A program made the position numbers and the translations under genes. A DNA stretch of 55,508 nucleotides, filler included, from Catajapyx aquilonaris (Eukaryota): the NCBI GenBank assembly GCA_000934665.2. It is 2 parts of 2 records of this genome, joined end to end, with 100 filler letters (N's around TTAATTAATTAA, not from the genome) between each part and the next. Parts side by side here need not be neighbours in the genome. Positions count along the whole stretch, not along the records: positions 1 to 27,725 come from KZ539267.1; 1 more part is not named here. One strand, given 5' to 3'. Numbering within the stretch: position 1 is the first letter of the stretch; every line of letters begins with the position of its first letter. Positions 10,975-34,400 of this stretch are shown piece after piece. The notes under the pieces were generated by a model. That model did not search any database, was not told the DNA's origin, and was given only the letters and a program-made list of their open reading frames with translations.

Positions 10975-11092
10975 ATGCTGGTCTTCGGCCCCTCGCCGAC
11001 CGCCAGCCTCGGGGCCGCCCTCGTGTCCTTCCTGGCCGTCGCTCTGGCCCTCACACCCACAGGACCTGCAGCCCATCTCCGGACCAGAAGAA
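10975..11092 (+). CDS. RSPO: R-spondin exon 1: signal peptide plus RTRR proprotein-convertase site
   Basis: MLVFGPSPTASLGAALVSFLAVALALTPTGPAAHLRTRR has a hydrophobic core then R-x-R-R. It ends at a phase-1 donor (A|gtgagt) matching the phase-1 acceptor at 27057. Too short for the ORF track; the link across 16 kb is inferred. Confidence 0.75.
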
Positions 11093-14000
11093 GTGAGTAT
11101 ATACACGCAATACGACACTTCCATCACCTGTGTCCAAGAGAAGGCCAGACGTGAGCAAACCCTGATCACAAAAGGGGTTTTAGTGCCTCTCGTTCCGTTT
11201 CATACACTTTGTTTGTGTTTAACGTCACGTTACATTAATTCCACCCAGAGTGATAAGCACGGTTCAGCCTCATGTTTGGATCCAACCCAAAAAAAAATGG
11301 TCAGACAGACACACTTGAAGACGGCGGAGTCAAAGTGTGTCTAGTCTCATCTCCTAATTGACTACCCGTGTCATTCCAAACCCCAACATCTTCACTCTGT
11401 GGGGTGGGCTTTGGGAGAGAGAAAAAAAAACTCATAAATGCGACGTGACTAGAAAATTCTATACATATGTGCGGCTTTGAATTCTTTGGCCTTTTCACAC
11501 TTTACATCAACGGGCACTGCCTTGTAAGGCTCGAGTAATTCCTGCGGTAATCTATAGCTAGCAAGGGTTTCCACTTTGCTGCCCGTTACTGTGGTGGGCG
11601 ATACGCTGCATTGTTGCACTTCGACAAGAGTATATATACACCGGGAGTAAAATAAACTTCCCAAAGGTGTACAGCAACATACATGTGCGTATATTGCACC
11701 TACAATAATAAATTTTGCTCATTTATTGCTATTCCCATACATCAATTGCATTGTTGCACTGGGATGTAAAATAAATGCGCAAATAAATTCCAAAAGATGA
11801 GCATCGTTGCACTCGTGTTGCTCATTTTTTTTTTGCCTAAATTGTACAATATGAATGGCCAAATTGCGTCATTTGCAATTAGTCGCAAAGGCGTTGCCTG
11901 TTGACAGAAAAAAATAGGTGCGAAGTTTATTTTCATGGAAACCACGCCTTCATGTACCGAGAAATATTAGCACCTTATCGTGACTTTTTTTGCACCAACT
12001 TTTCGAAGAATTATTTGCGTAAAGTACGTATGGCTTACCGATTCTGTTGTACCGAATCTTTTTTTGGCGAACGGGGCAGAAATATAGCCTCTTTTATTGG
12101 TCAGTAATGCAAGGAAACGATATGTACGCAACTGAATGGAATATATGTATTTTTTTTATTTTGTTCCTTTGAGTTTATGAGTCGTAAACTTAACGACGCC
12201 GTCTTAAACTTACATCATAAGACGCAACAGGGGTACACTTTTGATTTACAAGTGATTAAGCTAACACCTTCCAAAATATTTTCAACGTGGCTGCTGGAGA
12301 ACAGTTACAAGTTGCATAAACCATTAGCATCGTTTGCTAACCATAACATTGTTACTGCGGATGATGTTGGCAAATTGAGATATTAGTTTGCTATAGAATT
12401 ACATCGGAATCACCATGAAACACTGTTCATCTAGCATATATTTTACAATCTTCTGTATACGCTGGAAGTAAGTTCACATATGCATTGTTGCAATGTATAT
12501 GACATTACGAGGGGGGAAATACCTGCGCTGTTTTAACAACGCGAGTTTCTCAAGAAATATCAATATGTATCTAAGAGATTGTGTTTTACACTTTTACGAC
12601 CTGTTCACACGACACCAATATGAAAAGTTATTATTTTTAAAATGTAAGAATGCAGGTTTACGTCCCTATATTTGCAAAATGTGCTTTTTTTCATCTTTCA
12701 AGACTTCAGATCGCGTCACCTTTTGGCATTTTAGTACCGTGTATTTACAGTTACAATACCTCTCACACACGTAATTATGGCAGAACATATACTAAGCGAA
12801 TATTATTATCGGCCAGAAAAGTTGATAGAGAAGTCGGCCTTGCGCATATAAGGAGGATTGTTAAACTATTATTAAACCCGAAGATTTCTCGGCCATTACC
12901 CCAATAGTCGTATAGTCTCATTTTGGTTAAACTTTGTGTCGTATAGGCATGTCCAGTCCTTTAGAAAAATGTTGGAATAAACTGTGCCCCACATATTATT
13001 CAAACTTGGTTCATATCTCCAGATCTCTTCTGCTTCATAAATAATTCCGCCTGCAATGCGCAATTAATTCTTTGCAATAAGCGTCGGCCTGCGAAATAAT
13101 AGTGTTAAAGTGTGGGCGGCGCAATTGAACATTAAATTCGGACTGATATGGAATTAATTGGGGGTAAGACGTATTAACATGATAATGGAGAGAACTTGGT
13201 GATCTAGCAGGAGCTTTATGAAGAGCCAGTTATGCAAAAGCCAGTTAGTCTAGTACAAGGGCTGTGTTTGGAAGCCAGAAGGGGGTAGACGTGGTCTGCA
13301 CCAGTGATTAGTAATGTAGGCCTATCCCACTCTGCTTGTGGCAGCAGCAATGAGCACAAAAGGGTGTCTGGCCAGACACATGTTATCTCTCCAGGTGCTA
13401 TGTGACATGCAGGGTCGAGCAATTGTCGGCATATATTGAGACAACGCCCATTCATTGGTCACCAAAGCGATGATCCTTGAAGGTGTGTGCAGGTCGCGCA
13501 GGGAAATTAAATAAAAAGTATGTATGTCCTGTTGGGTGGAACTCGCGTGTCATTCCATTGGCTTATGCGCAATCACATCCGCGTTGCAGGTTACACATTC
13601 CTTCACCTTTTGCTGGTAATGTCTGTTCCCAACTGGTAGAAGCCACTGGTAACCCACACACACACACACTGAAGACATTACACGTCCGCAGCATATACAT
13701 GTCCTCAGATTATGATCTGTTTGTAGATGGGGAAGAAAGTAGCTTTGTGTTGCTCCCAAGACCGCGGCTATCGTGACTTTTTCGAGACTGATGCTTTTTG
13801 AAAGGGTCCATGGAACAAAATGGCCGCCCCATGCTGGGTGGGTTGGCACGATTTATAAAACTTTTTTTTGGATTGATAAATCGGCGAGATTTGAGCCAGA
13901 GAGAGCTAGTTCCATTCAGGGAGAGGACTGCTTTCTCTCTCTCACAGTAGAATATTCTCTCTCCAAAGCTCTTTTGTGTTGTGGAGCAAAGAGGCCCCTC

Positions 14001-17000
14001 CCCCGCCAGAAGATCAGCGGGTGTGGTACAGCATCACAACATATAACAAATGGACACAAAAATTTTTCCTCAATACTTTTTGAAGCACCCTGCAACTTCG
14101 GCGGTCGGAATGATCAAAAGGATGAGCATGTCGGAAATGAGAATTAATCCTGACTTATTGGCTTGGCCCTTATTGTCCCCGTTTTCTCTGAGCATGATTC
14201 CTCTTGCATGAATGGTCGGGGTATACATGTTTCCTCTTTTGGCTTGGTCAGACGCCGGCCCACGACCTGCACGTTTTGGACTCGTAAAATTTGCTGGATT
14301 CAAAACGACATCTTAGGGAAAAATAACCAGCCAGTATTTTCACATATGACGATACACTCTAAGAAATGTCTGGGTTAAATGTATTCATCCCGGAAAAAAG
14401 ATCACTTTTGTCATGGTTATTTAACCCGGACATTTCTTAGAGTGTATATACATTCTAAGAAATGTCCGGGTTAAATAACCAGCATGACAAAAGTGATCTT
14501 TTTAGAGTGTATAGGCTACACTCTAAGAAATGTCCGGATTAAATAACCATGACTAAGAAATGTCCGGGTTAAATAACCATGACAAAGTGATCTTTTTTCC
14601 GGGATAAATACGTTTAACCCGGACATTTCTTAGAGTGTAGGACCAGGTAGGACGATAGGAGGAAAAGATTCGATTATGCAGGAATTTGTAGTGTAAGCAG
14701 TGATCAAACCGTAATGATTACATCTCCTTCTGGCCTATGAGAAACCAGTTTGTATAAGATAGGCGGGCACTACCAGACACGAATTCAAAACACGGATTTA
14801 CTCCCCCAACAATACCCGGATTTTTCTTCACACAAAAATGGCCTCCATTGAGAAAGTCTTATAGGACCTCTTTTCAACTGGGGGCCCAACCGGTTCTTCC
14901 CCCAAAAAATCAGTGTATATATACACAAAAAAAGGGTAGGGGGGTTAGTTTCAATTACGAGGCAAAGCTGGCACTTATTCTATGTTTTATGTTAACATTT
15001 TTTTGTGTGTGTGTGTAAACCTGTGGGGTGGATTATGGTCCGTGGTTGTGAAGCCTGGTAATGAGCAAGCGGTGAGCAAATTGTATAGGAACCTGGCCAG
15101 GCCTGTTATTTGCAGACCTGTCATTTGCGTCTCAATCTATGGTTTTCCATGGCTCGCATGAGGGGGAAACCAAAGAGAAAGAAAAAAAAAACGTCCGACC
15201 CTCATACCCGGGTCATATAGAAAAACCTTTTAACATCTGGTGGCGGTGAAAGGATTTCACTTTATACCCCCGGAATAATATTGAAAACGTGGACTGAATA
15301 CAAGGCAGATTCGTCAAAACCGCAAAAGCCCCGCGGTTTGGCGTTGATTGACTTAAATTAATGAGACGAATTTGCGTGCAATATTTCTGACAGGAGATGA
15401 CACCATTTGAAATATTGAACCGCCAGTCAAAAGGTTGCATAGCATGTTTTAAAAGTCGGACAACTGCACAATTTTCGTTGAAATTTTCGAGCACCAAATT
15501 AGCGGGAAAATCGCTGTTAGTCATCTGAAACCCGGTTGCGTTTTATGACCCTCGTATATGCATAAATATAGAACCCATGGAAAATCTCATCAAAAATTGA
15601 CATCAATTTGGTTCTATTATCGTGATGGGAAAATCGAATATGCATTTTTGCTATTCTCGTCACACAATATTCCGCTGGGGACACGCGGTCAGTGTGCAAA
15701 AAAGAAAAACACGATTCGGCTGTTGTTTGCCATAGTTTTTTTGAGCAATTATGGGTCCTGTATTTTACGCAAAGTCATGCCGCATGGTGATCGGATTGGA
15801 CAAGGAACCTCGGTGTAATTGCCTCTCGCTTTGCTGGGTTTTCCCGAGATGCAATCAGACCAAGACTAGATGATGATGCATCCAGAAGATGAGCGATGCA
15901 AATTGTTAATGGGTCTCCTCCAGGGAATAAATATCGGGAAGATAACTTGCTCCTTTTGTCAGGATAGATTGACTCAGACATGTAAGGAAGAGATCCATTT
16001 TGTCTTCTGACAGATCAACACTGATGCGGAGGCTGCAATATTTGCTATAATAAGTGCGGTATGATCTGCTTGAACCCATGATGGGCTATCAACATAAGTT
16101 ACGATGATGGTCTTTAGGGGCGTGGCATCGTAGTTGCCTAAGTGTCGGACTAATAAGCTTGGCAACACAGCAATAGTGAAAAGAGTTTCTGCAAAAAATG
16201 GAGAGAGAGAGATTCCAGCATTAATTACCACCTGACACCTCCTGACGAATTTTCTCCGTGTCGCGTCCCCCCAGCGTCCAATTACCATTAAATGCTGTCC
16301 CGTAAAACGACAGTAATTTCCAGTCGAGGAAAAAGAGTTACGATGCGGACCGGACGGGAATTTTTTGATGGCCTCGCGATTGATGGAATGAGATGGAAAT
16401 TGGATCCGCGGAGACTCGTTAGCACCGTCACGCATCTCTTTTAAAAAAAGGAGGGGTCTATATCATAAAATATCGCTAGAATCACAAGATGAGACCGCGT
16501 AGGTCTTCATCACAACAATTGTGTGACGTCATCTAGACAAGAATTGGTCGCGGTCCATTCAGCAGCACAAATTGCTACTGCACCTAACCGGTTGTCCTGC
16601 CAAACTGATAGTTGGGCATCATCAGTCTGGGGGGGGGGGGGGGAGGGGAACATGCANTGGGGGGGGGGGGGGTGATGGGAACATGCAAAAAATAAAATAA
16701 AAGGTGGTTGCAGCATCCGGAATGGGTCCAGCTATCAGGCAGCTACAAGCAGGCGGGTCCCAGGTCCCAACATCCTTTTCCCAAATTCGTTCCGGCTGCC
16801 TGGCCGAATCGAATCGGGGGCGTTGCGATGGATACACCTTTCTGTCCCCCTTGATGATGAACACTTGGAGGACAATTTCGATAAGTTATTATACGGCATG
16901 GCGCGTCTGAAACATTGTTCTGAGACGTAGCCATCTCCGGATGTGATGTGTTTGACAAACAAACGTTAGAAAAGCTACTCACGTCCGGTTAGATCCCCTT

Positions 17001-20000
17001 GTTTTTCAAGGGCGGAGTGTACCGGTAGGTACATAGCACCGATGGGGGGGAAATGGCACACTTGTCACCCCTCGTGTCCTTCAGTCGCCGTGAACTGTCA
17101 CGACATCTCACGAATTAAAAGTCACCACTAAACACTATGCTGTGTGCTAACGAGCGATGTTCAACGTTGTAAAAATGAGAGCATACCCGTGTAAAGGTTG
17201 ACGACCGGCCCTAAACGTCCCCCTGGAAAAGTCATGTGCGTTTTAAACATTGAGAAGTGCACAAGTGAGATGTCAGCTACTGGACAGCAAAGAGGGCGTC
17301 TCCTTTCTTTCTTTTTTTTTCATTTCATTTTTTTTTCTCTCTTTCTATATGCATGTGTTTGTAAGGCTCCCCGTAGGGGGCAGACAGGAGCCCCTGCCAG
17401 TCAGCAGCCCATTCTGTCCATCTACTTTAGCCAAGGGAAATGACCCATCCAGTTGCAACTTCTGTGCGGTACTAATGCAAAACCAGATACAATTTTTTTT
17501 CTTCTAAAATTTTTGTTGAAGATGAGAGCTTCCAGGAAGGTTCCTCTTCCATCCGACCGTAGAGGTCTTTATTGACAACGAAGGCCTCCTGCTAGACGTG
17601 AAAACTGCTCCATGACTGACTGCCTGTCTGTCGGCCTGTCTGTCGACCTTTGACGTCCAGCAGGCGAGATGTAATGAGTACCCTGCGCACAGGTGTGTTT
17701 CCCCCCCCCCCCCCNCTTTGCTTCCATACGTATAATGGAGATGTGGGCTCTCCTCATTACATAGAAAAGGTGTTTTTCTGGCACAGTGAGGGGTGCCCTC
17801 ATTAGTTGGTTTTCTAACGTGCGGGGGAAGCTTATCATATACGTGGGTGATTGCAATTTTCTAGAAGGCGAGAGGTGGAGAAGAAGTAAAAAAAAAAAAT
17901 CAGCAATTATGTCAAGTTGGCACCACGTGGGTATAATTAGTGTGACGAGGCTGTTGAAAAACTCCGCCTCATTTGGTCACCTCCTTGCATTTATTTTACC
18001 GAGCACAACCGAAGTGCGCACCACAGTTAGCGCACCGTTGATATTTTCAGAAAGGGACGTGACGTATGTGACTTCTCAGAGAAAGCACCAATCAGAGGGA
18101 GACTCGGAAATGGATAGTTGAAGCTCATTGGGCGAGAGGTGTCTACTTATTTCCAACGCTACGCTTGGATAGGGGAAACAAAATGGCCGACGTTGTCAGC
18201 ACTAAGCTCACATTGCCTATGAGATAAAAACGTGCGAATCGTTCCATGATCATTCATGTATGTATGGTGGGGGAAGTGAAAGAAAAGAAGGATTAGTGTA
18301 AACAAAAAGGCGAGAGAGAGATTGGGGAGAGGGGTGGGGTTATCCGTAAGGGTAAGGTGGGTGTAAAAATGGTGGGAGGAGGTGGAATTTGGAAAGTTTG
18401 CCCCCCAGATGCTGCAGTCTCTAAAGCAAAAGCAAATGGGGGCCGGTTAAAAAGGCTGGGGTGCTTTTGGTTTAATGAGGCCACGGAGGTCCCGAACCAG
18501 TCTCAGAGTCAGTCCACGGTCATTTTTGCAGGGTCTCGGAAAAAGGGCAATGGGGATGATCAGCCGAGGTCACCACTCGTTTTTAAACGGATTCCATCCT
18601 ATGTATGATGATGGCGACCTGCCGGACCTGGGACTCCATTTTGCTAGAAGAAAATGCTCGTTCTGGCATGTGCTGTGCCAAATTAATTGCAGAGTGTGTA
18701 AGCAAACGTGGTTCCTATCACCTAAAGACAAATCAGTGTCATTGGAGCCGTTTCACACCCGACTGGTGGCCATGTCCTTGCTCTTTTTTTTTTTACCTAT
18801 TCTCCTTCCTCTGTGTCTGGCTGAAAGAAACACTCCGGTTCTCTTGTCTTCACCTAATCTAAGGATGTATCTTGGTGGTTAGGCCTATCAGTCAGCCCCA
18901 GCAAATGCCTCGAAATTGGACCGGACTCCCTTCCCAATATGGCCTACCTTACTCCTATTACATCACCATGGGTGGGCAGCACCCTTCGCTTTGATATGCA
19001 TGACTGGAAAAGACTAATAAAAGGAGATGGAGGCAGATTCTTTTTTTATTATTATTATACCTTCATCGAGGTCGTAAAGCCCTGTTTTTTTTTTCTTCTG
19101 GTGCCAAGAAGCAGCTTCTGACTTGCATGGTGGTTATGGTTTTATTGTGGTTGTGTGTGGGCCCCCCACTAAATCCCACGTGTGGCTTTTTGTGAATGGT
19201 TTGACCCTGATGCAATATCCATTCACCAACACTGGACACGTGCACTATAAGGCCACTTTAAGAACGCAACCGAGTGCGCAGACCAGTTCGCGCAACAATG
19301 TGCTCCCGTCAGCTGTCCGTTGATTGGCTCTGGCAACGTCGCAGAGTGTCATGCTCATCTTAGGCGCACATGCGATGCGCACTCGGTTGCGTTCTTATAT
19401 TGACCCGATCTTTCAAATTCCAAATTGCGGCATCGTGTGTGGGCATTCATGATATGAGTTTGTCCAGGTTATTGGGGCGGGGCAGAATTCTTCGTTTGAG
19501 TGGACGTCAAGGCTGTCCCATCCTGGACGGTGATGAACTGGCGTGTCCCGAGGAGGTGCGGTTGTCCACCTGTCAAAGTCCCTTTCCAGCAGGACGAGCC
19601 AGAAAAGACTGGACCTCATGTTACCTTTCACCAGACGGTAACCGTACAACAGTTCCCCAGAAGAAGAAAGAAGAAGAAAAAAATTCCGTGGCATTAATTA
19701 GCGTCTTGATTCCTTCTGGCCACTGGAGGTGGCAGCATTTCATGAGAACTCGTTTTCTTCACTAATTTTTTTTTTGTGTGTGTATGTCTTCAGTGGTGGT
19801 GGTGGTGGTGGTGGGTACACCAGGGCTTTCCTCGGCTGTAAATCAAAATAATGAATAATGGCTCTCGGTGGGAGCAGGGATGCCAATCCTGTTAAAATTC
19901 ACTCTATCTTGAGCTGGTTTGAAATTTATTGCTCGTATATTCAGACCTCTTTGTGCAGCTCGTACCATCCATCATGGGCTTATTTGCGGACGTCCAACTG

Positions 20001-23000
20001 AATAGCGGGACATGCCCAAGCACAGAAATAATGTGCGTTATTATTATTAAATATAGTATATGGAGCCCGCAATTGTCGGTTGCAATGCACACAACAAGCC
20101 GCCATTGTTGCTTTAATGAAATTTAACTAGTCCTAGTGGGAAAATATTCGACTTGGCAATGTGCATTGAATATGAAACATTGCTAATTAATTAATGAACT
20201 AATTAATAAGAATTATTCCTGAAATTCATTACTACATAGGGTACGTTCTGCCATCTTCTGAACTGAGCCACCCTGTATACAAATCGCACTTTTCCTCGTG
20301 CATGCGGATATACATATATATATATATATAATAAAAACTAGTCTTGCTAAATTGAATCTTGGTGAAGGCGAATTGTAATTGCACGCTATAAGCACCCCCC
20401 CCCCCCCTTCTTGTGCTGCCCACCCTTTTGCAATATACATAATGATATTTGAACAGTAGCACGGCATGTTAGACAAGGCTATCGCATTTATCAGGGCAGG
20501 GCTGAAATAGTCTTGACAGCAAACCTGCGCCAACTCCGATTTATATATATATATATATATTTTTCGAACCTATTTTTGCCAAATTCTGTTTTTCGCACGC
20601 ATAAAAAAGTATGGCTCGCGTTTGATCCAAGGTCTCATCCAGAATTTGGTGTTAAGGGGAAGGGAGTACGGATATACATAAAAAAAGAGAGCAATGTGTA
20701 GACAGGTGTAATTAAGTCGGGTGTGGGTCGGTTTGAGGGGGGGATCAATGGGGCCGATTACAATCCTGTTTACATAAGAGTGAGCACGGAGACTTGCGAT
20801 TCTTATCTCAAGTTGTAATCAACCATGTTTTTTTTTTTCTTGATCTGATCGGTTCCTGCTGCTGCCTGGATCAGAAACAACAACCTTTTTATCACATACC
20901 CAGCATAAATTACAAGTTGTCATATCGACTGTATGCACAGCTGAGTTTTATATAATTCATGTTCAGGTACGATAAAGTCGTGAACTAATTTTTTTTTTTT
21001 TGCAAAATTAAAAAGGACAACTGTTTACATCTCCCGAGTGTGCATGTTGCTTCTGGTTGGACGAGTCTTCTCCTCCCACACTCTTTTTTTTATTTCTCGG
21101 GATGAATCACACACAAGGCAATGCCCATTATCTTCTGACTGGGCCAGAGGACACCCGGAAGATTCTCCAAGAGCCTGTAATGTAAAACCCCATACCACAC
21201 CACCTCCTAAAGGTGGGCTGGACTCATCTTATTCGCCCCCTTCCGGTCACCTGCGCAACATTTTTTTCTTAACGCCTTATGTGTACCCCTACACTCTTCT
21301 TTTTTGTGCACACCTGTGGAAATCACATAGACCGTCATTGTCCTTAGGCAGATCATCATCATCATCGCCCACATCTGCCTACTCCCCAATTAAGGCCCCC
21401 AAAACTGATCCGTCACCAATTTGATGAAGCGCCCAAAGAAAAATATTTTCCGCCATAGAAATTTTCTAGGTGCGCGTGGGACGGTTTCGTTAATGAATTT
21501 GCTGAGAGCTAATTTACGGACCGAAAATAATTGGGAGACGCTTGATTAGTTCTTTCCACCAGCAAGTATTTGCATTTTAGAGGCATGTTTTACTGTGCAA
21601 TGTTGCATTGTTGTGGCATATCAGAGCGGAGGGAAATTATTAATAATGTGTTGGCATTCGGTCCAGATAAGGTCGTCCCATGTAACTCACTTTGTCCGAC
21701 TTAAACCTACCGAAGATTCCGCCTAATGGACGCTGAGCCCTGTAATAAATCCGCATAATGAGCTGTTTCGCCACTTTTTTTTTGTATGTGTGGTCGCGTC
21801 TCATCTGAGGCAAGAAGAATAATAATGCAGACAAACTCATTTTGTAGTTCGTCCCCACAAATTTTTTGGACGTGGGTTTGCTGCTGGGGATGGTCTATGT
21901 GGGTTTTAACATGGTGGGAAAAACACATTTCGAGGGAGTCTCCGCGGTCTTGACTTAATGTGCCTAGAAGAGAATATAACGCCAACCCACAACCAAAATG
22001 TCAATAGCCTATAATCCTGAATCTCCATGTAGGCGAAAACAGGGTGGCACATTGACCAAGTTGCTTCTGAAGACTTTTTTTTTTTTTTTGCAAAGAATGT
22101 ACCACCCTGCACATTTTTTTTGTCTGTAAAATTAACCATCGTGTTCATCACGTGGGCTTCATTTTTTTTGCCTGTTTGTCTCAGAAAGCGAGTGGTGCAA
22201 AAATTCGCGATATTTCGCGTTGGCGGTGTTGTCATATTTTTCAATGCGAAAGTTTGACAGGCGATGGTGTCTGTTGGATGTGTCTCGCCCATCAGCTGCT
22301 TCAGAGACAGGAATGTAAATGTGTTTGTTCCGAGAGGTAATTTATTGCCTGATAATTAAAACTTGTCGGAGAGATTATCATATCTGCGGTGGTAGAAGAA
22401 GAGGAGGGTTTTTCTTTTTCTTTTTTAAATTATGCGGTCTCCGCCCGTCTTTTAGCCTGTTTGCTGTTGACTGAGCAAATATCGGGGGGGCCTCAGGAGA
22501 GAGAGAAAAAAAAGGGTGTATATATATTCGACGGTGACAAGTGTCTCCTCAAAAGGGAAGTGACAGTAGGAGAATTCATTTTTGAAGCACCATATATCTT
22601 GAATCGGTGTGTTATATTGGCTAGAAGTGTGTGTGTGACTCCTTATTTGCAACAACTCGATATGGGCGGAGAAATTATTTGCACACTATATTTGCAACTG
22701 TCAACACTGAGGGTTTGAAAAATTTGCATTCAATGCTTGCAGTGTTTTTCTCTCCAAGTATTAGCTGGTTTTTCAACGTCACGTGAAATTGACAATAATT
22801 GCGATGGTAAATACAGCCTACGACATTTCCATCGTCTCCTGTGCCACTTTGTATTATCTTACCCTTGAAAATGAGTACCTGTGAGATAGTTTCCACCCCC
22901 ATTCCTATATACGTCTGATAGCACGTTATAGGCGTTACCAACACCTGTTCCAACAAACTGAGAAACTCACTGCCGTTTCGTGATGGGTGGGAGGAGGAGG

Positions 23001-26000
23001 AAAAGAGAATGGTAATCGACAACCCTCCCCATCACATCTCTCTGCCCTCCTCAATCCCCCCCATCATCGCAGCATCCTTTCCTTATCCCACTCGTGCTGA
23101 CTGGAGATCTGACCTCTAGAGGTCAGCTCCAACCTCCTCAGCGCCGTGCCTTCTCACCCATGGGCAGCTTCCGACCAATCAGGTTTAGGAAACACACTCT
23201 TGACCTTACCCAACAAACTGATCGACCCCCTGAGGATCCAGCATTGAACCACAAAATGTTGGAGGTCAATTCCAGCATTGAAGTCACTCGGATTATTTTT
23301 TGCGTGATTGCATTGCTTGTAGAGAGTGGGTAGGATTTGCTTCTGGTGGGGCAGGGTTGTCCTCCCACCTTTTTCTTTTTTGTTGTTGTTGAGCCAAAGA
23401 GAGCCAACCAAGCAAAAGCAGAGACATAAACTTACCTCCCCGTCCGATTTGTCAGAAATTACGCCTGCGTGATCTGGGTGGATAATAATCCTTCCCCATT
23501 CGGCGAAACCCGGTTTCTTCTATAGAGAAAAAAAAGAACTCTGGGGGAGCTCCATCCGAAAAGAAGAGATTTATGCTCCTGATGAGATGCGGAATAGAGA
23601 TGCAGGATTCATATTCGGAGCGATTAGCAATACGCGGCAAAAGACCCCACCGGGCGTGGGCATAAATCATTTTGTTGCTTGGACCTCTTTTCTTTCTTTT
23701 CTTCGCAACCCTGTACAGTTGGGGCAGGGATTCTCATATATTTATGGGCTGTCATACGGTGAGTTTAGCGTCGCCGGCGCATGTTAGGTACGGTCCTGCC
23801 CTCCGGACGTGAATACTTATCATCGAGTCATACTCGAGGGGACGGACATTATGCGGTGTGAATTGCAAATTATTCGTAATGGAATGGTGCTTCGGATAAG
23901 TGAAAGGGAAAAAACTAGATGTCCCGAATATATTTATGGCCCACAGTGCACCTCGTGATGATCCCGGCAGAATGTGTGATGAAACCTGAAACACCTGAGC
24001 GAAGCGAGTGGTTTCTCTATAACCGCAGGCGTAGAAAATGTGAGCGAATCGAGGGTTTTTTAAAGTCTATAATCGTTCGTTGCATGACCGAGGATTCTGA
24101 TTGGCTCGCTGTACGACGCATCCTATTGGCCCCCGTAACGGGGGCATTGCGCAGGCGCAGAACGGGGGCCCCGTTCTGCGCCTGCGCAATGGAGAAGGCG
24201 GCGCCTCTGGTCATCCCTTCTGATTGGTCAGGCTCATATTGTTACCCCGACGCTTCTGATTGGCCCCTGTTCTGCGCCTGCGCAATGGGTAAGGCGGCGC
24301 CTCTGGTTATCCCTTCTGATTGGTCAGCCTCATATTGTTACCCCGACGCTTCTGATTGGCCCCCGTTTTGCGCCTACGCAATGGGGAAGGCGGCGCCTCT
24401 GGTTATCCCTTCTGATTGGTCCGCCTCATATTGTTACCACGACGCTTCCGATTGGCCCCCGTTCTCCGCATGCGCAATGGGGGTGGAGGCAGCGCCTCTG
24501 GTGGGTGGGAGGAGGAACCATCCGTTCGATCGCTGTCGGCCGGAGGGTCTACCGTCTACATCTACAGTCTACCCTCAGTGAGCGAAGCGAGGGTTTTGCT
24601 ATAGTTACCTTTTAAAGTGTACTATCCGTATATGACCGTCCAAGCAATAAATGACACGAATGGCCCAGTATAAATCCGTCGTGTTTCGCCCACGGTGTTG
24701 GCCTAATTGAAACCTCCTGAGGCTGCAATCATAGTGCGCCCAGACAGCCATAAAGAGTGGAGCTGGCAGCACTTTATGGCACGGACAACAAGTACAATAA
24801 GACATGAAAGGGGTCTGGTCTTGCTCTGTCTGTTTTCTTCTTCACACAGCAGGGGCAGGTAGCGAAGAGTGGACTCGTCAGCCAGTAAATCTGTCGCGTC
24901 TTCAAATCCAGTCGTAAATTTTACGACTCTTACTTCTCAGGTGGGGGATAGCTGCGCAAGTGTCTTTTCGGGGTGGACCCGGGGTACGGAAGCCAAGAAT
25001 TATTAGTACCTGTCGCCCCGACCTGTAGGTGTCTGTCCTTTTTTTTCTTCTTCAAATGGGAACAATTTACGGTACACTGTCCCACTGGCAGGGCTTCACC
25101 TTCTTTCCACTTAGGGAAGGTCGTCTGAATTTGAGTTTTTTTTTCTCTCGGTAAAAAGATTTGGCCTCGCAAAAATGTCTGGAAATAAATATCCCCCCAA
25201 GTAATTGCTCAATTGGCATATTATGTATTCTGTTGTCTTTGTTATATCAAACCGTTTTTTTTTATTGCCAAGGACTCCCTCGTAAAAGTGTCAGAATTTT
25301 TAAAGAGTCCATATTTTAACTTATTTACAAGCGGAGTCATTGCCTCGAAAACCGTTAGAGACATAATTGAAATTTGACGTTAAATCATGCCGATTTTCAT
25401 AGTGATGCTACTCTCTTAAAAAAATGAAGATTTCACTCAAAAAAGGGAGCTATTTTTGAGTTAATTTCCCTCGGCAAAGGCATATTTCAACTCAAATCGA
25501 GTGGAATATTACTTGAAAGTGAGTGAAATGATTACTCATTCTGAGAGAAAATCAGTCCACGAGATCGAGTGATTTGCACTCAAAAACGAGTGGGATACAA
25601 ATCAAGTGGAAGAAAGAGTGACAATCACTCAAAACGAGTGGAAAAATACTCATATCTTAACCCCCCCAAATCGCTCGTATTTTTGTAGGGCAGAAAGTCA
25701 CTCCCTTTTTTCACTTTTTTTGTAGTAGTGATATAAACGAGCCCATGTAATAATTTTTACACCCATTTAAAACGGATCGTTTATTTTATGCCATATTTTG
25801 TGTCCTCTGTATATAACTGCTGCGATTTCCTGTAAAAGGCTCTTTCATTCACAGGCTTTCTCTCCATTACATTCTCTCCTTCGCATTCATCCTTTGGTTG
25901 TAAACAATCAAGTGTTGTGCATTCATGGCCGACCACCAGTTCATTAACTAACTCCTTCTCTCTGCTGATGCAACTTTCATTGAGTGTGCAGCTGGGACCA

Positions 26001-27725
26001 GCGGTCATGCCAAGTGTATAGAGTGTGTGCGGTATGGCGATGGTGGGTGGGTATGAAACAGCACCATAACTCACAGAGAATGCGGCTTTGCTTGCTTGGC
26101 TTTTCTGACTGGCTTGCCCGCAGCGTCAGGTAGTCTGGCCTGACCAGGTGGGCGGCTTGGACATGACTCGTCCCACACCTTTCTTCTTTCCACCTCCTTC
26201 CTCTTACCTCTGACTCATTCACCAGTTGGTACTTGCTGTGTAAGTCCAAGCTATATACATACACGCAACATTCCTACACCTGGCTGGAGCTCCAACTTCC
26301 CTCTTTCCAGATCTGACCGAGACTCTCACATGACCTTAGAGGAACAATGACATTATTACGAGTCACCCCCCCCTGTCTGATTTCCTATTTTGCTTGCACA
26401 TCCTCACACGACTCGGTGTCCTCCCAACAAAAGCCCGAGTGATGAATGGGGCCCGGTACTTAGTGTCACCCTGGGAAAGGTCCACCTGCATGGGGCACAA
26501 CAACAGGCATGAATGAAGAAGAAGCGACGGCTCATTTGAACTCCCACCCACACCTCAAATATATACGATGGTCGACTGTACAGTTTTGTGCACACCCTGT
26601 AACTGCTGTGCAAATAACGATTGATGAATAGCCCCCCCATCTGGTTGCCCAATTAAGGTGCTAAGTGCAAGAGAAGCTAATCGGACGACACGAAAGGGTA
26701 CTCTGCGGCACGTGTGTGTGTGTCCGTTTCGAGCAAGAGTCGTAAAAAAAGCGTTTTATCCGCGCTACGACTATCTGTGAGTCACTTATTTCCTAATGTG
26801 TCCACGCCCATTAGGAAGGAGCGTACATCAATTATCGCCAGCACACCTCTGGGGCTTCAATTACACGCATTGTCCCACTTACACAGCAGGTTACTGCGCC
26901 TCCGTTTCCAATCATTAGGAACTACACCCGCGATGTCCCCAATCGGTCCAATAAAATCGTGGATAGAAGTGGCTGTGACTCTGTCTGTCCACTGTTAGAA
27001 GCTTGGTACTACGTCCACTGGCGTGAATTATACTAAACAGTAATTTTAATTTTCCAGCTCTGTACGGACCTTCCTGTCCGACCGGATGTAGTGCCTGCAG
27101 TGCAGTGAACGGATGCGTGTCCTGCAAGGCTCCGTTGCTCCTGCAGTTGCATCGGACAGGCCCTCGACAGATAGGGTTGTGTCGGTCCACGTGTCCGGAC
27201 GGATTCTTCGCAGGAAGGGTCGGAAAGCCGTACTCCTTCTGCGCCAGTAAGTCGCGGATACAGCTTACGACACTTCCATCTTCGGACCTGTTTAACGTAC
27301 GATGTGTTTCAGAGTGTCGTCTGGAGCACTGCGAGATATGCTCGGGCAAGAACGTGTGTGTGCGATGCTCCAGACCTTACGTGGAGCATCGCGGAAAGTG
27401 TGTCCCGCCATGTCCGGCCCTCAACCTAGTGGACGCCAATGTGACGGACGGGGATTGCGTCTCTCCTCCAGGCCACCACACCAGACGTCGCCACTACAAG
27501 CCTGGTACGTCAAATGGGGCCCCTATATCTTGTATAACAATAATCTAAAGAATCGTGCGTGCGCAGGTGCGTGCCAGGTGAGCCAATGGTCTCCGTGGAG
27601 CTCGTGCAAGCCTCTCAGGAGGCCTGCCTGTAGAGGCATCCAGACCAGGCAGAGGGAGATACTGCTGGCGACATCTGGATCCGACGATGTCTGTCCTCCG
27701 ACCAATCAGACGCGACCGTGCAGGC
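10975..27725 (+). CDS. RSPO: R-spondin homolog (signal peptide-FU1-FU2-TSP1), 3' partial; join(10975..11092,27058..27246,27313..27504,27567..>27725)
   Basis: FU1 CPTGCSACSAVNGCVSCKAPLLLQLHRTGPRQIGLCRSTCPDGFF, FU2 KCRLEHCEICSGKNVCVRC..YVEHRGKCVPPCP and TSP1 CQVSQWSPWSSC..CRGIQTRQREIL match the R-spondin domain order and Cys spacing. All three introns are phase 1 GT-AG, one domain per exon as in vertebrate RSPO genes. Confidence 0.88.
14355..14637. mobile_element. Three adjacent mini-MITEs with CACTCTAAGAAATGTCCGGGTTAAAT TIRs and TA flanks
   Basis: Copies at 14355-14444, 14451-14509 and 14519-14637, each ending TTAGAGTG|TA. Confidence 0.8.
19251..19406. mobile_element. Short MITE (Harbinger-like ends)
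   Basis: Perfect 22-bp inverted repeat TAAGAACGCAACCGAGTGCGCA at 19259-19280 / 19376-19397. Confidence 0.7.
23991..24606 (+). mobile_element. Helentron/HINE-like non-autonomous element with internal 96-bp tandem array
   Basis: TGAGCGAAGCGAG(G/T)G motif at both ends; 3' hairpin ACCCTC..GAGGGT followed by CTATAGTT; ~3.4 units of 96 bp; related copies at 8.6-9.3 kb. Confidence 0.65.
24169..24500. repeat. 96-bp minisatellite, ~3.4 copies
   Basis: Unit CCCCGTTCTGCGCCTGCGCAATGG..GCGCCTCTGG..CTGATTGG..ATATTGTTACC..CTGATTGG; appears as a 32-aa repeat in ORF 23919..24581. Confidence 0.9.
25409..25730. mobile_element. Degenerate element with many short CACTC/GAGTG subterminal repeats (CACTA-like remnant)
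   Basis: Repeated cactcaa/gagtg words in both orientations; A-run and T-run inverted ends. Confidence 0.35.
27058..27246 (+). CDS. RSPO: R-spondin exon 2, furin-like domain 1
   Basis: tttccag| acceptor, |gtaagt donor, 189 nt, 8 Cys, SxxNGC and RxxxRQxGxC motifs. Confidence 0.92.
27313..27504 (+). CDS. RSPO: R-spondin exon 3, furin-like domain 2 plus basic linker
   Basis: gtttcag| acceptor, |gtacgt donor, 192 nt; KCRLEHCEIC aligns to RSPO1 KCKIEHCEAC; NVT glycosylation sequon at the position of RSPO1 NGT. Confidence 0.9.
27567..27725 (+). CDS. RSPO: R-spondin exon 4, thrombospondin type-1 domain (truncated by gap)
   Basis: gcgcag| acceptor; WSPWSSC and QTRQR motifs; runs into Ns at 27726. 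Confidence 0.88.
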
Positions 27726-27825
27726 NNNNNNNNNNNNNNNNNNNNNNNNNNNNNNNNNNNNNNNNNNNNTTAATTAATTAANNNNNNNNNNNNNNNNNNN
27801 NNNNNNNNNNNNNNNNNNNNNNNNN
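27726..27825. other. Assembly spacer: 44 N + TTAATTAATTAA + 44 N
   Basis: Exactly 100 bp; the palindromic 12-mer gives stops in all six frames. Confidence 0.95.
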
Positions 27826-28340
27826 TCGTAGCGGGAAGAACCACCATTGTTATGGTCTATTTGCACTGATGCAGGATATGATGCAAGTTTCACAAATAAT
27901 TATGTTACTTTACACTGCCGCAATATGAAACTGGAAAGAAACTCTCATCTTGCATGCAGTTTGATAGGTGTACATAGACTTATCACCAAACAGATTATGA
28001 ATGATTAGAAGAGTTTCCATACATTGCAAAAAATTCCTCCGATCAGTTTTGCTTAGCTACATGGTGAAATCTGTATATAGCAATTCCCCCAAAATTTTAC
28101 ATCCTGAACAGGTGTTCTGTAAGGGACAGAAATCCACAGAAAATCTACACCTGGGACCATTCAAGCTTCTCAACGAACAAGAGTCCAATGTATGCAGGAT
28201 CTGCTATGCACAGGCTTCACTGCATCACAATTGTAGTAAAAATCTCTGAAGTCAACTTTAATGCATTTAAGTTCGCTCCTTGGTGTCCAGCCTATACTTA
28301 TAAGGGAGTGATACAGATATATCAACTGCAAAGTGCTAAC

Positions 28341-28495
28341 CTGCTGGTATGGCGAGGAGGACGTGGCAACGACATCCTCCTTGAGCGTTGGGGTCTCTCG
28401 AAACACGACTGCCCGGATTACCCCTTGGATGTGGTCCTCAGGCCAAGATCCTAGCAGGATGCGTTGAGGTCTCCCCCTGCCCTTCGGCCGCAAAT
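28341..28495 (-). CDS. bab: bab module C exon 2: AT-hook region
   Basis: tctag| acceptor; DLRPKGRGRPQRILLGSWPEDHIQGVIRAVVFR; candidate donor CAG|gttagc at 28341, otherwise reads to the stop at 28170. Confidence 0.88.
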
Positions 28496-31400
28496 CTAGA
28501 AGAGAATTTTTGGCTCTCTTTGGTGCCTGGTCCCCTGCCTTTTCTCTTTTTTACTCTCATCTCTCACTCATGTGGGGAGCTAGCAGAGTGGGGGTCAAGA
28601 GAGTGGTTGGGGTGAAGTAGTAGAGAAGAGGAGACTGACCTGCAACTAAGGTTGCATGTCAGACATTTTTGGAATTACCAATTTCGGGACAGATGACGAG
28701 CTACTGTTGGAAGACGGAGTTGACTCCCTGCATATGTTCGAGTTAGCCAATCATCTCAGATCAGTGCTTGCTCTTTGCAACTTCGGACCTCATAATGTAG
28801 TACAGGTAATGTTACTTTGTTACTACTACTTATTGATGCAAATTGGCTGGTCCTTCAAGGCTTCCGTTGAGTCCTGTAGATCATTCATACAGCTTTCTAA
28901 CTCAAGTGCCTGCTTTGGAAAGCAATTATTTGGTGCTTCGCCGTTGAACAATAATTCCCAAATTTATTCATATGGACTACCTACAATTACATAAACAAAA
29001 CAATCCATCAGAATAGTGCCCTTTGAAAGCCATCAACCAAGTTCATTGCTGACAATCTAATAACACTTCTAATATTTCTTAATACGTAACTGCTTAATAA
29101 GCAGCTTATTGCCAAAAAAATTACTAACTGAAGCGAACACTCAATTGAAATTGGAACAGCATACAAGCAAATCCAAATTTAAGAATGACATGTCTCCCCC
29201 ATCTCCCTGCAGACCCTAATAATTACCTGTGCTAACAAGTCTGAACTAATAGAAGCATATTGCTTATCAAGTATTCACATTTGTTTAACTATTCTGTATG
29301 GCGGGTGGTGAAATGCTTATGACTACAAGTAGGACCTACAATCTGTCAGAGGTATGTAGCAGACTTACCAATCAGCTCTAAAACAGCTAGTCTTCAGCCT
29401 ACTCTAGCACAGTAGCACAAAACTTGTAACTGTCCAAGTGGAAGTCAGCACTGTCACAACTTGAGCTCGCCACCTGTCACCCATGTCAACATATCACAGG
29501 GAAGGCCAATTTCATCAGTCAATTCATCTGCTTAGTAAGGAAGGTAGAGGGTGGGGTAGTGCTGGTGACTCGAGGATCATGAACTGACCTGCTGCTCCAT
29601 CGCTGGATGGTCCCAGCATGTTGTGAACCCTGTTGGCGTACAGCACAAAGGTTGGGTAGGGGATGTCGTACTTCCTGGCTGCCTGCGAGAGGGACAGTCC
29701 CTCCTTCAGCACTGCATGTATGGCTTCTGCCATCGTCTCTGGCCTCCATGACTTCAGTGGTCCTCTTTCTCTGAACCGCATGCTGTGCAGCAGTCCTGGT
29801 GGGTTTCCTGCATTGGCACTCCAGCACTTCTGCCACATGCTCTGCAGCTGGTACTGGTAGCTGTCCACTGCTTGGCATGAAGGGGGGGGGGATAGATACA
29901 TCTCTACCTTTCTTTCCCATTTTTCACCCATCTCTTCCAACTACCCCCAACACTAACACTCAACCCTTTTGCCATACTGGAGTTGGTGAACACCTCAAAG
30001 TTTCCAGGCCTGGCACCCGGCTCAACAAGTTTTAAATAATTGATTGCAAGGCCCCTGGTAATAAATATGCATAGCCTTAATGCGCTTTGTATGGCAGTGA
30101 AGCTGTGCTTGAATTCTGCACAGGCATTGTTGTACAGAAGGGGAAGCAAATTTTGCTCCAGGACATTGTTGGACATTAAAACTGCTATCCATGATTAAAA
30201 TAATGCCCCATCAAAATTTTGCCTCACTGAATACTGTACTTCAAAATCTTCATCTCTTGAAAAGACTAATTTTGAAACCAAATTAGATTTCTCTCCTTCT
30301 CCACCATTATGTACAAACACAAATTGACTGCAAAGTGCTGTTGTTAACCAAACACTTTCTGCACCCATCCTGAATATTTACTCCCCCCAAGTCCTCACAG
30401 GATGCAAGTTGCCTCTTGGAAGTCATGTTTCCACTACAAAATGTTGAAAAGAGGGGCAAGTGTTTTGCGAGGTCCCTTGTCCATAAAAACTCCCTGGCGA
30501 GAATGAGCCGATGTGAGAGGAAAGAGGGTGGACATTTTGGGCCGCACGTGCATCAAATGGGGAGCCCCCCCATGATATGAAAAGATATGTGGGAATGTGG
30601 TGGGCTTGTTGGGAGGAAGGGGGAGGTGCTGCAGGGTGGGTGGGGTATATGGTAGTAGTGGGGTGGACGGGAGACAGACGGGTTGGCAGGCGTGGTCCAG
30701 GGCCTAATTCGATTTTTCGCCCGGCTCGGGCTGTCAAATCCTAACTCAATTTGGGGCATGCACTTGGGCGCCCAGGGAGCTGCAATGAGCCCGGGAAAAA
30801 CCAGAGCCCAAGCCTCCCTCTTTTCCACGCTCCCTCCCCTCACATCCATCTACTTTCCCACCAACTCCAAATGGACATACACATATGTTAGTACAGTACA
30901 TCACCCCCTCCTCCTCCTCCCTTCCCTCTTCCCACGTAACCGCTCCCCACCCGCCCTCCCAAAACTTCCCCACACTGAACAGACCCCAAGCGAGCTATCT
31001 CCATAAAAACAATATTCTGAGCTCGACTCTCATATGCCTTTCCGCTTATGGTCAGAATGGAATTTGCATCCATCTACGTACATTCTGAGAATCACTCAAC
31101 GGGCCCGTCACTAGAGGATCACTCTGCAAGTGTCAATACTGCTGGGCTCAACCGCATTCAGGACATGACAATAACACTGGCAATCTGAAATCGCGGGGAC
31201 TTACAGGCCCCCTGTGCGATCTGCGCATTTTATCGCGGGTGTTGTAACCCCGAGCAATCCGGGTCCAGTCCATTAGCATGGAGAAAAAAGTCTACGTAAT
31301 GTCGGGCCGTAATTAACAGGAGTTCATGCTTAAACTTTCCAGTCCGGTCAGAATGACACTGCTAAATGAAGACACCTCCCAATCCCCCCCCCCCTCGACC

Positions 31401-34400
31401 GCGGCATTACGCCCGACGCACCGATTGTCTGCGAAAAGTAGGATCACTCTCATTATGAGGAGTGCCAGTATGGGGCATGTGGCTATTGCTGCTTGGAATC
31501 AAGTTGCGAATATATTGCTTTGGTGGGCTATAGGCCAGGACTACAGCTAAGGCAAAACATTTTCTGAGTTTCGATTATCCGCGAATGAGGTTTGGCTGTA
31601 GTGATAATAAGTCGTGCGTAAGCAATTATTCTCTTAAATGGCCTCCATATCGGGAGAATCGACTCGGAAGTACGCACAATTACAGTAAAATGTTGGCGTT
31701 TTATTAATTATGGATAATAATCAACCGACTCATGCACAAATGCAGTGTACTTAGTAATGTCAGCAATGATTTTCTAACCAAAGCTTAGGAAATTTCCTGT
31801 TGAATGAACGTATGGCACATGACGGCCCCTAACAACATGGCCATTCAAAAATGAAGAATTCTATTGTTGTTTGCCTTCATCTCCGCATTATCTTCCTACA
31901 ACGCTCCATACATACAAGTTTTATTGCAGAACAATGACCACCTTCTTACAACGAGTGGCCTTAAGCATATACCAAGCTACCTAGATGGAAATTGCTTCTC
32001 ATCACACCAAGCTTGAGAAATGCGCTGCGGCCCGAAAGTACCTTTCCATTGGACCAGACCATATCATCTCCCGAAGAATTAGCGAGTCAATGAACTCTAT
32101 AATCTGCAATCTTCTCGAACTCGTGCTCTCTTCTCCTATCTCCCCGACAATCTCCGGCTGGCTGAGGCCGAGAGACGTAGGAGGTTAATATTTGTCTGTG
32201 GTCACCTTCGAAAATCGAACCTTAAAACCGGTTGAGATTGCCCTGCCGACTCAAACGAAACGCTGCCATGTTTGCCCAGCCAAGTCTCAACACCTGATGC
32301 TTAAATTAACCTGCCCTTGTGGTTAAGACCCTCTCCGAGCTTAATTACGAAATGTGCGCCAAAAGCAGCCATGTCCTGACATATTCAGCGTGTGCAGTCT
32401 AAAAATTTTATAAGAACATCTGTACTGCCTTACATCTAAATAGTCTGTCATTATTACGGATTGTACTTTTTTTCCCTGGCTTCAGAAAACTGATCACCTT
32501 TCACATGCTGTAAACTAACCTTCATTCTGACTACGAGTCAAGCTTGGAATCCATGAAGTAGGCCTAGAACACCTTTCATCCTGCCCTGTCCTCATTCTTG
32601 CCTCGTAAATATTGCTCTCAACTGCGTCATGGAATGTGAAAGACATTTATTTTCAACTCAGACTTACAATAAAGTTAACCATCATATATATAACCCAACA
32701 TGGAAGACTCTGTCACAACAACTTCAATAAGGTGGAAAACATGTGACAACTCTGAGCCCAAACTGAAATAAAAAACAGTCTGTCAAGACATATCGCTCCA
32801 TACAAAAATAGCCTGCAGTAATACATTAGTTGTATGGATGTTGAAATTTCAGTATAGGAGTTACTGTATATTATGCGCTTTATATACAAACGTCCGTGAA
32901 GACTTTATGTTATAGGGACAATATGTTCTGATCACGTAAATTAGCTCTTATTATGCTGTCAAACAAGAAATAAAAATAGCCACGATCAATGTCAATAGTT
33001 CACGTAAGTGTCACACACCGAAAGGAAAAACACTACGTTGGCCTATTACAATAACAATAAACAGTTTTACGTATCAAAAAAGGGCTCCAGTCTAAAAATT
33101 TGCACACTAACGGAATGCCAGCCTTTGTCAATGGGAACATAATTAAGTAGAAATTGCTTCCTCCTAACAAACATCCTAACTGACGGACCCATGTCCACTG
33201 TCAGTTTCAAATATAGTCACACTGTGTAACAAAGAGAGAAAAAAAAATGGTGGAATGTTCACGAGTTCGTCCGTCACCATACAACACCACAACGTTGCCC
33301 TTGAGAGTGTTTGCCCTGAGGTGTAACCCCAATGAAAAAGCCAGCGGGTCAGTTTCCACAGCCTATGTCACTACAAATACTCGCTAACTCATTTAGATAC
33401 TATTAACCCGTCTTGATTCCCGGAGACTTCGTCCGCATTAACATTTCAGTTTGGGCACAATACGTATCTGATTAATCGATATCAAATAAAACCCCTTATA
33501 ACTCAGAAACGACGTTGCATGAAATAAGCATGAAGTCCCAAATACACCGGACCAATTGCGAAACCTAAACTATCACATGACCTAAAAAAAAATTACTCCG
33601 GTGAATATTTCAGAAGCGCAGATAGTTTTCAGATAAATGCATAACTCATCAGAGCGGTCATAATTATTGCATGGGCGAGGCGAAGCAAGATTTTATCTCA
33701 GTTTCCCAATATCGCCTTCCCCTCAGCCAGAGTAACAATTTTACAGGAGGCAGAAGTTTTGTAATATTCCCCTGGATCGCGTTTCCTAAAAACTGGAGCT
33801 TATTACATTCATAATATCCGTCAAAAGTCGGCGGATTCCAGGTTTACTCGTATTATCAATGACTACGCTGCTGGGTTGGGGCAATCTTTTGGACTGGTAC
33901 ACTTCAGCCCGGGAAATAATAATAAGAGAGAGAAAGAGAGAGAAAATCAGACGTTGATAAATTTTTAAGTACAGGTGTGAGTGCAGTCCGTAATTCATGA
34001 CAACAAACTCGGTGCGTTCCAAGTCAATGCGCAGGCACCGCATACACTATTAATGCAGCTGTACATAAGACCCCCATAAATCATTCGCGACCTATTTTCT
34101 GACCATTGAGCCGCGCCAGTTCGAATAAAAAGAAAACGGCAGGCATGTTCATGTGCGTCTGCAATAAAAAAAAACAGCAGAGGTCAACCGATATGACGAT
34201 CAGATCGTGTACCATGCCTGCCTGAAAAGCGATGCTGTGGAAACATGACCACACTTCTGGAAATCGCGCGTAGGAGGGAAAAAAGAAGAGTGGACCATTT
34301 CTCCGTTGGCGTGTACAAGGATAGGAAAGAGAGGGTCATCACACACATAAAAAGATGCAGCGTGCAGAAAATATAAGCTTTTTTATATATAAAAAAGTAA

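Follow-up and report, generated by a model that had tools for sequence, protein, structure and literature searches.

An arthropod R-spondin from Catajapyx aquilonaris without the LGR-binding phenylalanine clamp

The R-spondin gene and its receptor-facing residues

A 55,508-nucleotide stretch of DNA from Catajapyx aquilonaris (assembly GCA_000934665.2), referred to here as the window, carries an R-spondin (RSPO) gene on its + strand. The gene has four exons, for a probable signal peptide, two furin-like repeats (labelled FU1 and FU2) and a thrombospondin type 1 domain (TSP1), the last of which is cut by a gap. By domain content the product is a true R-spondin, a member of the family from an arthropod, and it carries Ser and Val at the two positions, 106 and 110, where RSPO1 has the Phe residues of its LGR-binding clamp. 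The features of the gene are as follows.

10975..11092, + strand: probable exon 1, with an ATG, a hydrophobic signal-peptide-like stretch, an R-T-R-R furin-type site and a phase-1 GTGAGT donor
11093..27057, + strand: putative intron 1, about 16 kb, with a GT donor at 11093 and the acceptor TTTTCCAG ending at 27057
27058..27246, + strand: exon 2, furin-like repeat 1 (RSPO1 stretch in the PDB at an independent E-value of 3.7e-10; Pfam PF15913)
27132..27134, + strand: Pro at RSPO1 position 59 (Lys59), from the RSPO1 alignment
27153..27170, + strand: hairpin tip R66-T-G-P69-R70-Q71, with R66, R70 and Q71 kept, from the RSPO1 alignment
27247..27312, + strand: intron 2, 66 nucleotides, phase 1, GT..AG, in frame and stop-free, called from the sequence and lying outside the coverage of the spliced contig
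27313..27504, + strand: exon 3, FU2 and then the basic linker HHTRRRHYK (PDB RSPO1 alignment; contig of a second study over 27343-27503)
27342..27356, + strand: loop 106-110, S-G-K-N-V where RSPO1 has F-S-H-N-F, from the RSPO1 alignment
27505..27566, + strand: intron 3, 62 nucleotides, GT..AG, spliced out (skipped by a contig of run X5)
27567..27725, + strand: exon 4, spondin-type TSP1 (WSPW), cut by the gap (Pfam PF19028)
27726..27825, no strand: gap of 44 N, 12 bases and 44 N, seen in the sequence; contigs extend beyond 27725

The initial annotation had read 27058..27504 as an arthropod R-spondin, and that identity stands. All 13 PDB matches of this open reading frame at E<=1e-3 are RSPO1 or RSPO2 (best 2.4e-18), Pfam Furin-like_2 (PF15913) is matched with 71.5 bits against a cut-off of 28 (E 7.5e-20), and Foldseek returns 34 matches at E<=1e-3, all the listed rows among them being RSPO entries and the next match standing at E 0.23. 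The TSP1 domain scores 42.8 bits with PF19028 against a cut-off of 41 (E 6.3e-11), with F-spondin 1szl at E 0.0023, and its exon is joined to the FU2 exon in the spliced contig. The R-spondin features present are two furin-like repeats, one TSP1 after FU2, and a long hairpin with S48, N51, R66, R70 and Q71. A generic furin-repeat protein was rejected as an identification, since this combination of two repeats, long hairpin and TSP1 is unlike the arrays L001-L003 described below, which have many tandem repeats and a short hairpin but neither R-x-x-x-R-Q nor TSP1, and which need a 7-residue gap at the hairpin when aligned to the window. In the AlphaFold model the predicted local distance difference test (pLDDT) score is 94-95 over residues 11-50, most of FU1; because 22 residues of the model are encoded by intron 2, little weight can be put on its TM-scores (0.35-0.39) or on how it arranges the domains.

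Residue numbering is that of human RSPO1, as in PMC3937510, and follows an alignment to RSPO1 in the PDB; papers are cited by PMC number, each for the portion of its text that was available. FU1 has the long beta-hairpin with which vertebrate R-spondins bind ZNRF3/RNF43, and S48 (27099-27101), N51 (27108-27110), R66 (27153-27155), R70, Q71, G73 and R87 are kept. Phe106 is replaced by Ser (TCG at 27342-27344) and Phe110 by Val (GTG at 27354-27356). The RSPO1 alignment and the contigs agree with the initial annotation on both clamp residues and on the five kept FU1 contacts, although three further changes had been missed: Lys59 is Pro, Phe61 is Leu, and the Met-finger at position 69 is Pro (CCT at 27162-27164), so that the RSPO2/3-type finger is absent. 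Lys59 belongs, with R87, to the charged LGR site (PMC3937510), and changing F106 or F110 singly to Glu or to Ala abolishes LGR binding (PMC3937510). The vertebrate-type LGR surface is predicted to be gone from the window protein, as first proposed, and the K59P change adds to the F106S and F110V changes on which that proposal was based. The claim that the ZNRF3/RNF43 face is kept fares less well, since the polar contacts remain but Pro has taken the place of the Met-finger, on which ZNRF3 affinity partly depends; judged from these residues, that face is kept only in part. The protein would not be of the LGR-binding type, nor is it clearly of the high-affinity RSPO2/3 type.

Sequencing or assembly error at codons 106 and 110 was ruled out. 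Contigs of three runs from one sample, possibly the source of the window itself, show no difference at either clamp codon, and the second-study contig spans 27343-27503 with 0 differences, so that Phe is ruled out at 106 and Val110 is borne out. This contig belongs to run X5 (depth 3.5; the kind of run is unrecorded) and skips exactly intron 3, which is skipped by 0 contigs of the three DNA runs. Because the intron is skipped in the second study and retained in the DNA runs, the gene is transcribed and spliced. All FU cysteines and splice sites are intact, the exon frames are open, and the exonic differences between runs, small in number, are synonymous in 3 of 3 cases. A pseudogene was ruled out by the open frames and the splicing.

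The extent first given to the feature was right in that 27058-27504 is coding and in one frame, but it comprises two exons, and exon 1 and the TSP1 exon had been missed; the stretch reads through as one open reading frame because intron 2 is in frame and without a stop. Exon 1 was chosen by a scan for an ATG, a hydrophobic stretch and a phase-1 donor, and 10975-11092 is the one among 36 candidates whose donor is strong and which has both a hydrophobic core and a basic site. Its junction with exon 2 reads RR-TLYG, which otherwise occurs in only 2 of 168 stored proteins, the R-spondin of the centipede Strigamia and P0018. Exon 1 and its signal peptide are best called probable, the signal peptide being predicted by a hydropathy heuristic. 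The position of intron 2 looks conserved among homologues: of 48 matches that hold FU1 with no contiguous FU2, 46 diverge at this site with S or R, as read-through of a phase-1 GT donor would give. Were intron 2 retained, the FU1-FU2 hinge would gain 22 residues. A run of 36 bases (27245-27280) also matches another contig in each of the three DNA runs, so that intron 2 carries sequence repeated elsewhere in the genome. The linker and the visible portion of TSP1 hold 12 K/R against 3 D/E in 63 residues, and the last part of TSP1, with whatever basic tail may follow, is hidden by the gap after exon 4.

Intron 1 contains a tandem repeat (24166-24490) with a 96-base-pair period and 88-92% identity between copies, within a 220-codon open frame at 23919-24581. 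Upstream of the R-spondin gene, at 1936-2448 on the + strand, lies a BSD-domain exon (Pfam PF03909, E 1.3e-11). Downstream, and tail to tail with the R-spondin gene in window coordinates, the - strand of 29527-45688 carries a BTB exon (45146-45688) and psq helix-turn-helix exons at 29527-29940, 34410-34925 and probably 36076-36624. This combination of BTB and psq is one that we take to be pipsqueak-like, possibly a BTB/psq gene with alternative psq exons. A PDB search with the BTB exon returned 0 matches.

Distribution and ancestry of the clamp

An exhaustive HMMER search returned 279 proteins at E<=1e-3, and 150 listed matches were used for residue counts. The library holds one protein per 50% cluster, and divergent forms are over-represented in these counts for that reason. 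With the window included, 98 of 151 rows fit the FU1-FU2 pattern; the other 53, mostly intron read-through fragments, were left out. Names come from 30 matches that were looked up and, for further proteins, from the profile search. Among the matches listed, positions 106 and 110 are both aromatic in 71 of the 98 alignable rows; the initial annotation had proposed such an alignment with protostome and deuterostome R-spondins. Seven of the 98 rows are aromatic at neither position: the window, three malacostracans, P0060, P0110 and a probable fish mis-model. The last of these, P0145, looks like a fish model with a third repeat in the place of FU2 and is not counted as a real loss. The double loss is thus not unique to the window, being shared by 3 of 16 malacostracans, P0060 and P0110. 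The latter two form a pair (support 100/99) with full FU1-FU2-TSP1, no clamp aromatics and Trp in place of R66, and appear to represent a separate, independent double loss.

F106 together with Phe or Tyr at 110 is present in every scorable mollusc (8 of 8) and in all 3 annelids, as well as in Styela, a tunicate, and in hagfish, and the Strigamia loop F-N-K-N-Y keeps F106 and Y110. Asterias has Tyr and Val at 106 and 110; a bryozoan, a nemertean and the tunicate Clavelina are without F106 but keep an aromatic at 110, and P0018, P0060 and P0110 are also without F106. The Clavelina R-spondin (P0130, P0159, P0160) has lost R66, R70 and Q71 together with F106, such that its ligase face is eroded too. 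Strigamia has an aromatic residue at 110, as do 13 of 13 named lophotrochozoans and 13 of the 16 named malacostracans.

The malacostracan proteins, named R-spondin-1/3/4-like in RefSeq or GenBank, share the remodelled repeats of the window. They come from Penaeus, Macrobrachium, Palaemon, Procambarus, Cherax, Portunus, Panulirus, Oratosquilla, Hyalella, Trinorchestia and krill (P0014, P0031, P0028, P0043, P0073, P0091, P0093, P0103, P0117, P0163-P0168 and P0040). Like the window, all 16 have Pro59, a finger residue other than Met or Ile and a non-aromatic 106, and R66 and Q71 are kept in 16 of 16. Position 106 is Ser in 8 of them and variable overall (S, T, D, E, R, A, L). They differ from the window in that 13 of 16 keep Tyr or Phe at 110, the TSP1 motif W-x-x-W-x-x-C is found in 0 of 16 (one record is partial), long K/R tails are usual, and several species have at least two genes. 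Gene pairs on scaffolds of equal length occur in Hyalella, Oratosquilla and Penaeus japonicus, and the krill record holds a second furin-repeat unit. Across 140 scorable matches, 18 of 18 with P59 lack Met or Ile at 69, against 10 of 122 of the others; because the rows are related, this association has no standing as a statistical test and probably reflects a single event.

Strigamia maritima R-spondin (UniRef100_T1JBV6, P0006) has the same order of signal peptide, FU1, FU2 and TSP1, a basic site followed by TLYG, and S48, N51, R66, R70 and Q71, with 39% identity to the spliced window model by BLASTP. It has F106/Y110, Met69, R59, F61 and a K/R tail, where the window has S106/V110, P69, P59 and L61, and the window differs further in a basic insert before TSP1. 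The best BLASTP match (150 bits) is P0018, a transcript-assembly protein that resembles the window in RR-TLYG, FU1-FU2-TSP1 and a non-Phe 106 (Leu) but keeps Y110, Ile69 and R59.

In a 56-row tree the window groups with Strigamia, P0018, Tubulanus and Malacostraca (88/80), without resolution inside the group, and this group nests inside a mostly protostome one (84/83). A 31-row tree with positions 59, 69, 106 and 110 masked gives the same picture, and no starred group in it holds the window. The 56-row tree has no non-RSPO outgroup, the window branch is long (1.4-1.5), and vertebrate labels are presumed from resemblance except for P0016, which matches RSPO1 in the PDB. The phylogenetic check that had been proposed places the window among protostome R-spondins beside Strigamia, with the outgroup and the branch length as its weak points. 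Parsimony was run on species trees with four lophotrochozoan arrangements. At the level of residues the bilaterian root is assigned F106, Y110 and M69 under all four, by a margin of 1 step for 106 and 110 and 2 steps for 69; a binary aromatic test at 106 gives an aromatic root in 3 of 4 topologies and a tie in the fourth.

Several observations weigh against a single derived loss. In the masked tree the window and Malacostraca are not united, although that grouping is not rejected (p-AU 0.447) by the approximately unbiased (AU) test, and neither is a single clade of all 13 rows without F106 (p-AU 0.308); Strigamia is the only named non-pancrustacean arthropod in the sample, which holds no chelicerate. 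Because the AU test rejects neither grouping, the case for derived loss rests on the species tree. Val110 nonetheless appears clearly derived, because 110 is aromatic in lophotrochozoans, Strigamia and most malacostracans, and Ser106 is probably derived. Taken together, the residue patterns suggest that clamp loss is later, common to the window and to shrimps and crabs, and not ancestral. If the host is a hexapod, they suggest as the simplest reading one pancrustacean remodelling, with P59, loss of the Met-finger and a non-aromatic 106. The proposal that the clamp-less state is possibly ancestral is not supported, since Strigamia, the molluscs and the annelids keep the clamp and parsimony favours an ancestral clamp by about 1 step. 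Generic furin repeats are mostly non-aromatic at 106 and 110, so that the window would resemble a pre-RSPO state by reversion.

Further searches added few relatives. Word-index searches with the window open reading frame found no homologue among 94 and 11 candidates, and a profile search of low sensitivity gave 14 matches with no named hexapod or chelicerate, which does not imply their absence. Two metagenome scans found no R-spondin, one returning nothing and the other three furin-repeat arrays, and an ESM Atlas search gave leads under 0.9 only. The arrays L001 (32-3730), L002 and L003 are intronless, with more than 20 furin-like repeats each, and are probably from protists; they are not R-spondins.

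Proposed signalling without an LGR and its alternatives

The reading that we favour, though tentatively, is of a secreted ligand tethered to heparan-sulfate proteoglycans (HSPGs), with FU1 engaging a PA-RING ligase without an LGR to raise Frizzled, and with the LGR surface secondarily lost. The bilaterian and arthropod ancestors would have had F106 with Phe or Tyr at 110, a Met-finger and often K/R59, all of which the centipede has. At or close to the pancrustacean stem, Pro would have come to stand at position 59, the Met-finger would have been lost, and F106 would have become Ser-like. The window lineage would then have lost F110 too while keeping TSP1, and malacostracans would mostly have kept Tyr or Phe at 110, lost TSP1 and come to carry long K/R tails. 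The protein is predicted to be secreted, cut after RTRR and held on HSPGs by its basic linker and TSP1. FU1, through S48, N51, R66, R70, Q71 and G73, would bind a ligase of the ZNRF3/RNF43/PLR-1 type (PA-TM-RING) and clear it, and this clearance would raise Frizzled. Such action would be like that of RSPO3 F106E/F110E, with no LGR, and probably of short range, with low or co-evolved FU1 affinity.

Precedent for this mechanism comes from vertebrates. RSPO3 F106E/F110E still signals and needs FU1 and the TSP/basic region (BR) that engages HSPG (PMC5800842, PMC7239654). As in LGR-independent RSPO2/3 (PMC5800842, PMC7239654), which have an FU1 polar face and a basic TSP region and for which FU2 is dispensable, the window has the polar face and basic residues around TSP1. 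RSPO1 (PDB 4kng, 4cdk, 8wvu) has the same fold and arrangement of cysteines as the window protein, and likewise R87 and the polar contacts for ZNRF3/RNF43, but it depends entirely on LGR binding through F106/F110 (PMC5800842), and the window has neither Phe. The FU1 polar residues are kept in spite of the long branch, and this type of ligase exists in ecdysozoans as C. elegans PLR-1 (PMC3937510, PMC10686798). LGR-independence is, on these residues, a reasonable inference.

There are also points that weigh against this reading. Only high-affinity FU1 domains signal without an LGR (PMC5800842): RSPO2/3, with 25 and 60 nM for ZNRF3, do so and RSPO1/4 do not (PMC5800842). RSPO2 Met68 inserts in a hydrophobic pocket of ZNRF3, M68E nearly abolishes binding, and Ile at the Met-finger partly explains the weaker affinity of RSPO1/4 for ZNRF3 (PMC3905715). 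RSPO2/3 keep the clamp, the Met-finger and nanomolar ZNRF3 affinity, whereas the finger of the window protein is Pro and its basic tail lies out of view; in the + frames of 27826-29500, no stretch of 20 residues has more than 6 K/R. Part of the charged LGR surface does remain, in the form of R87 and an R-G-K patch in FU2. Drosophila has no RNF43/ZNRF3, and no RSPO either, in the table of PMC10686798.

An adaptor for a client other than Wnt appears unlikely as an alternative. In this proposal FU1 recruits a PA-RING ligase, TSP1 picks another membrane protein, and FU2 and the LGR are dispensable, in the manner of RSPO2/3 with BMPR1A; RSPO2 antagonises BMPR1A via FU1 and TSP1 without FU2 or an LGR (PMC7642414). 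The window keeps exactly FU1 and TSP1, but the malacostracan R-spondins share the FU changes without the TSP1 motif, and clients chosen by TSP1 cannot explain a change shared with proteins that lack it.

It is distinctly unlikely that a type-B LGR, of the bursicon-receptor family, is still bound via a co-evolved surface and the kept charged residues. Insects have type-B LGRs as bursicon receptors (PMC3937510), and R87 and the FU2 patch would be available for contact. Set against these points, a single Phe change is enough to abolish LGR binding and the window protein has neither Phe nor K59, and the variability of malacostracan position 106 is unlike that of a maintained binding site.

Decay is decidedly improbable, that is, a weakened gene with little signalling role that is heading for loss as in Drosophila. 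The long branch, the loss of K59, F61, Met-finger, F106 and F110, and the low depth of the spliced contig, which is no measure of expression, would fit such a gene. That the frames are open, that cysteines and splice sites are undamaged, that the gene is spliced, that S48, N51, R66, R70, Q71 and G73 are kept and that the exonic differences are synonymous all argues otherwise, as does the retention, often with duplication, of clamp-less R-spondins across Malacostraca.

That the clamp-less state is ancestral, with the clamp a later gain, or one made separately by chordates, by molluscs/annelids and by centipedes, is very improbable: L001-L003, the several other lineages without F106, the tie in one topology and the unrejected F106-less clade can be cited for it, but they are met by the residue-level parsimony, by the aromatic residue at 110 across lophotrochozoans, Strigamia and most malacostracans, and by the RR-TLYG N-terminus, which links the window to the clamp-bearing Strigamia protein.

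A wider form of the favoured, LGR-free reading is more doubtful. Molluscs, annelids and the centipede keep the Phe clamp, the Met-finger and often K/R59, for which reason the pairing of RSPO with type-B LGR could be as old as the bilaterians. Pancrustaceans would have uncoupled RSPO from LGR in one step and would run a natural LGR-free, HSPG-tethered system, possibly with a remodelled ligase pocket, and the window gene would represent an intermediate stage, a hexapod R-spondin that still survives, ahead of the loss in flies.

Place in the literature and significance

Arthropod R-spondins are already on record. A Strigamia orthologue was reported in one sentence of PMC4244043, crab transcripts have been annotated as RSPO-1 (PMC4507985), and RefSeq names decapod R-spondin-like proteins. 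In its available text, PMC6805652 reports no RSPO in a Palaemon gonad transcriptome, and the available portions of PMC9545775 and PMC7521923 add nothing on arthropod RSPO. Cheng et al. 2025, in a survey of 430 animals, describe RSPO in molluscs, annelids and brachiopods, with F106/F110 near-universal, and as absent from all arthropods analysed, in the available text (PMC12111769). Their filter required TSP1 (PMC12111769), and malacostracan proteins would therefore drop out. In the open literature, subscription papers not being covered, we found no paper on clamp loss in arthropod R-spondins or on a hexapod R-spondin.

The present data contradict a general absence of R-spondins from arthropods, as the Strigamia and decapod records did earlier. 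Because the clamp-less state is derived and shared, the single gene is less surprising than first thought, and the wider pattern, with the clamp conserved in invertebrates and lost in Pancrustacea, is of more interest. A review describes the RSPO/LGR/RNF43 module as a vertebrate add-on (PMC3937510). That view can be tested at both ends, given that full-clamp R-spondins, such as those of oyster and centipede, should bind type-B LGRs and the clamp-less pancrustacean ones should not. Farmed shrimps and prawns carry such R-spondin genes, which are unstudied. A natural family that has lost clamp and Met-finger, and TSP1 too in Malacostraca, yet keeps S48, N51, R66 and Q71 offers a series for defining minimal R-spondin function.

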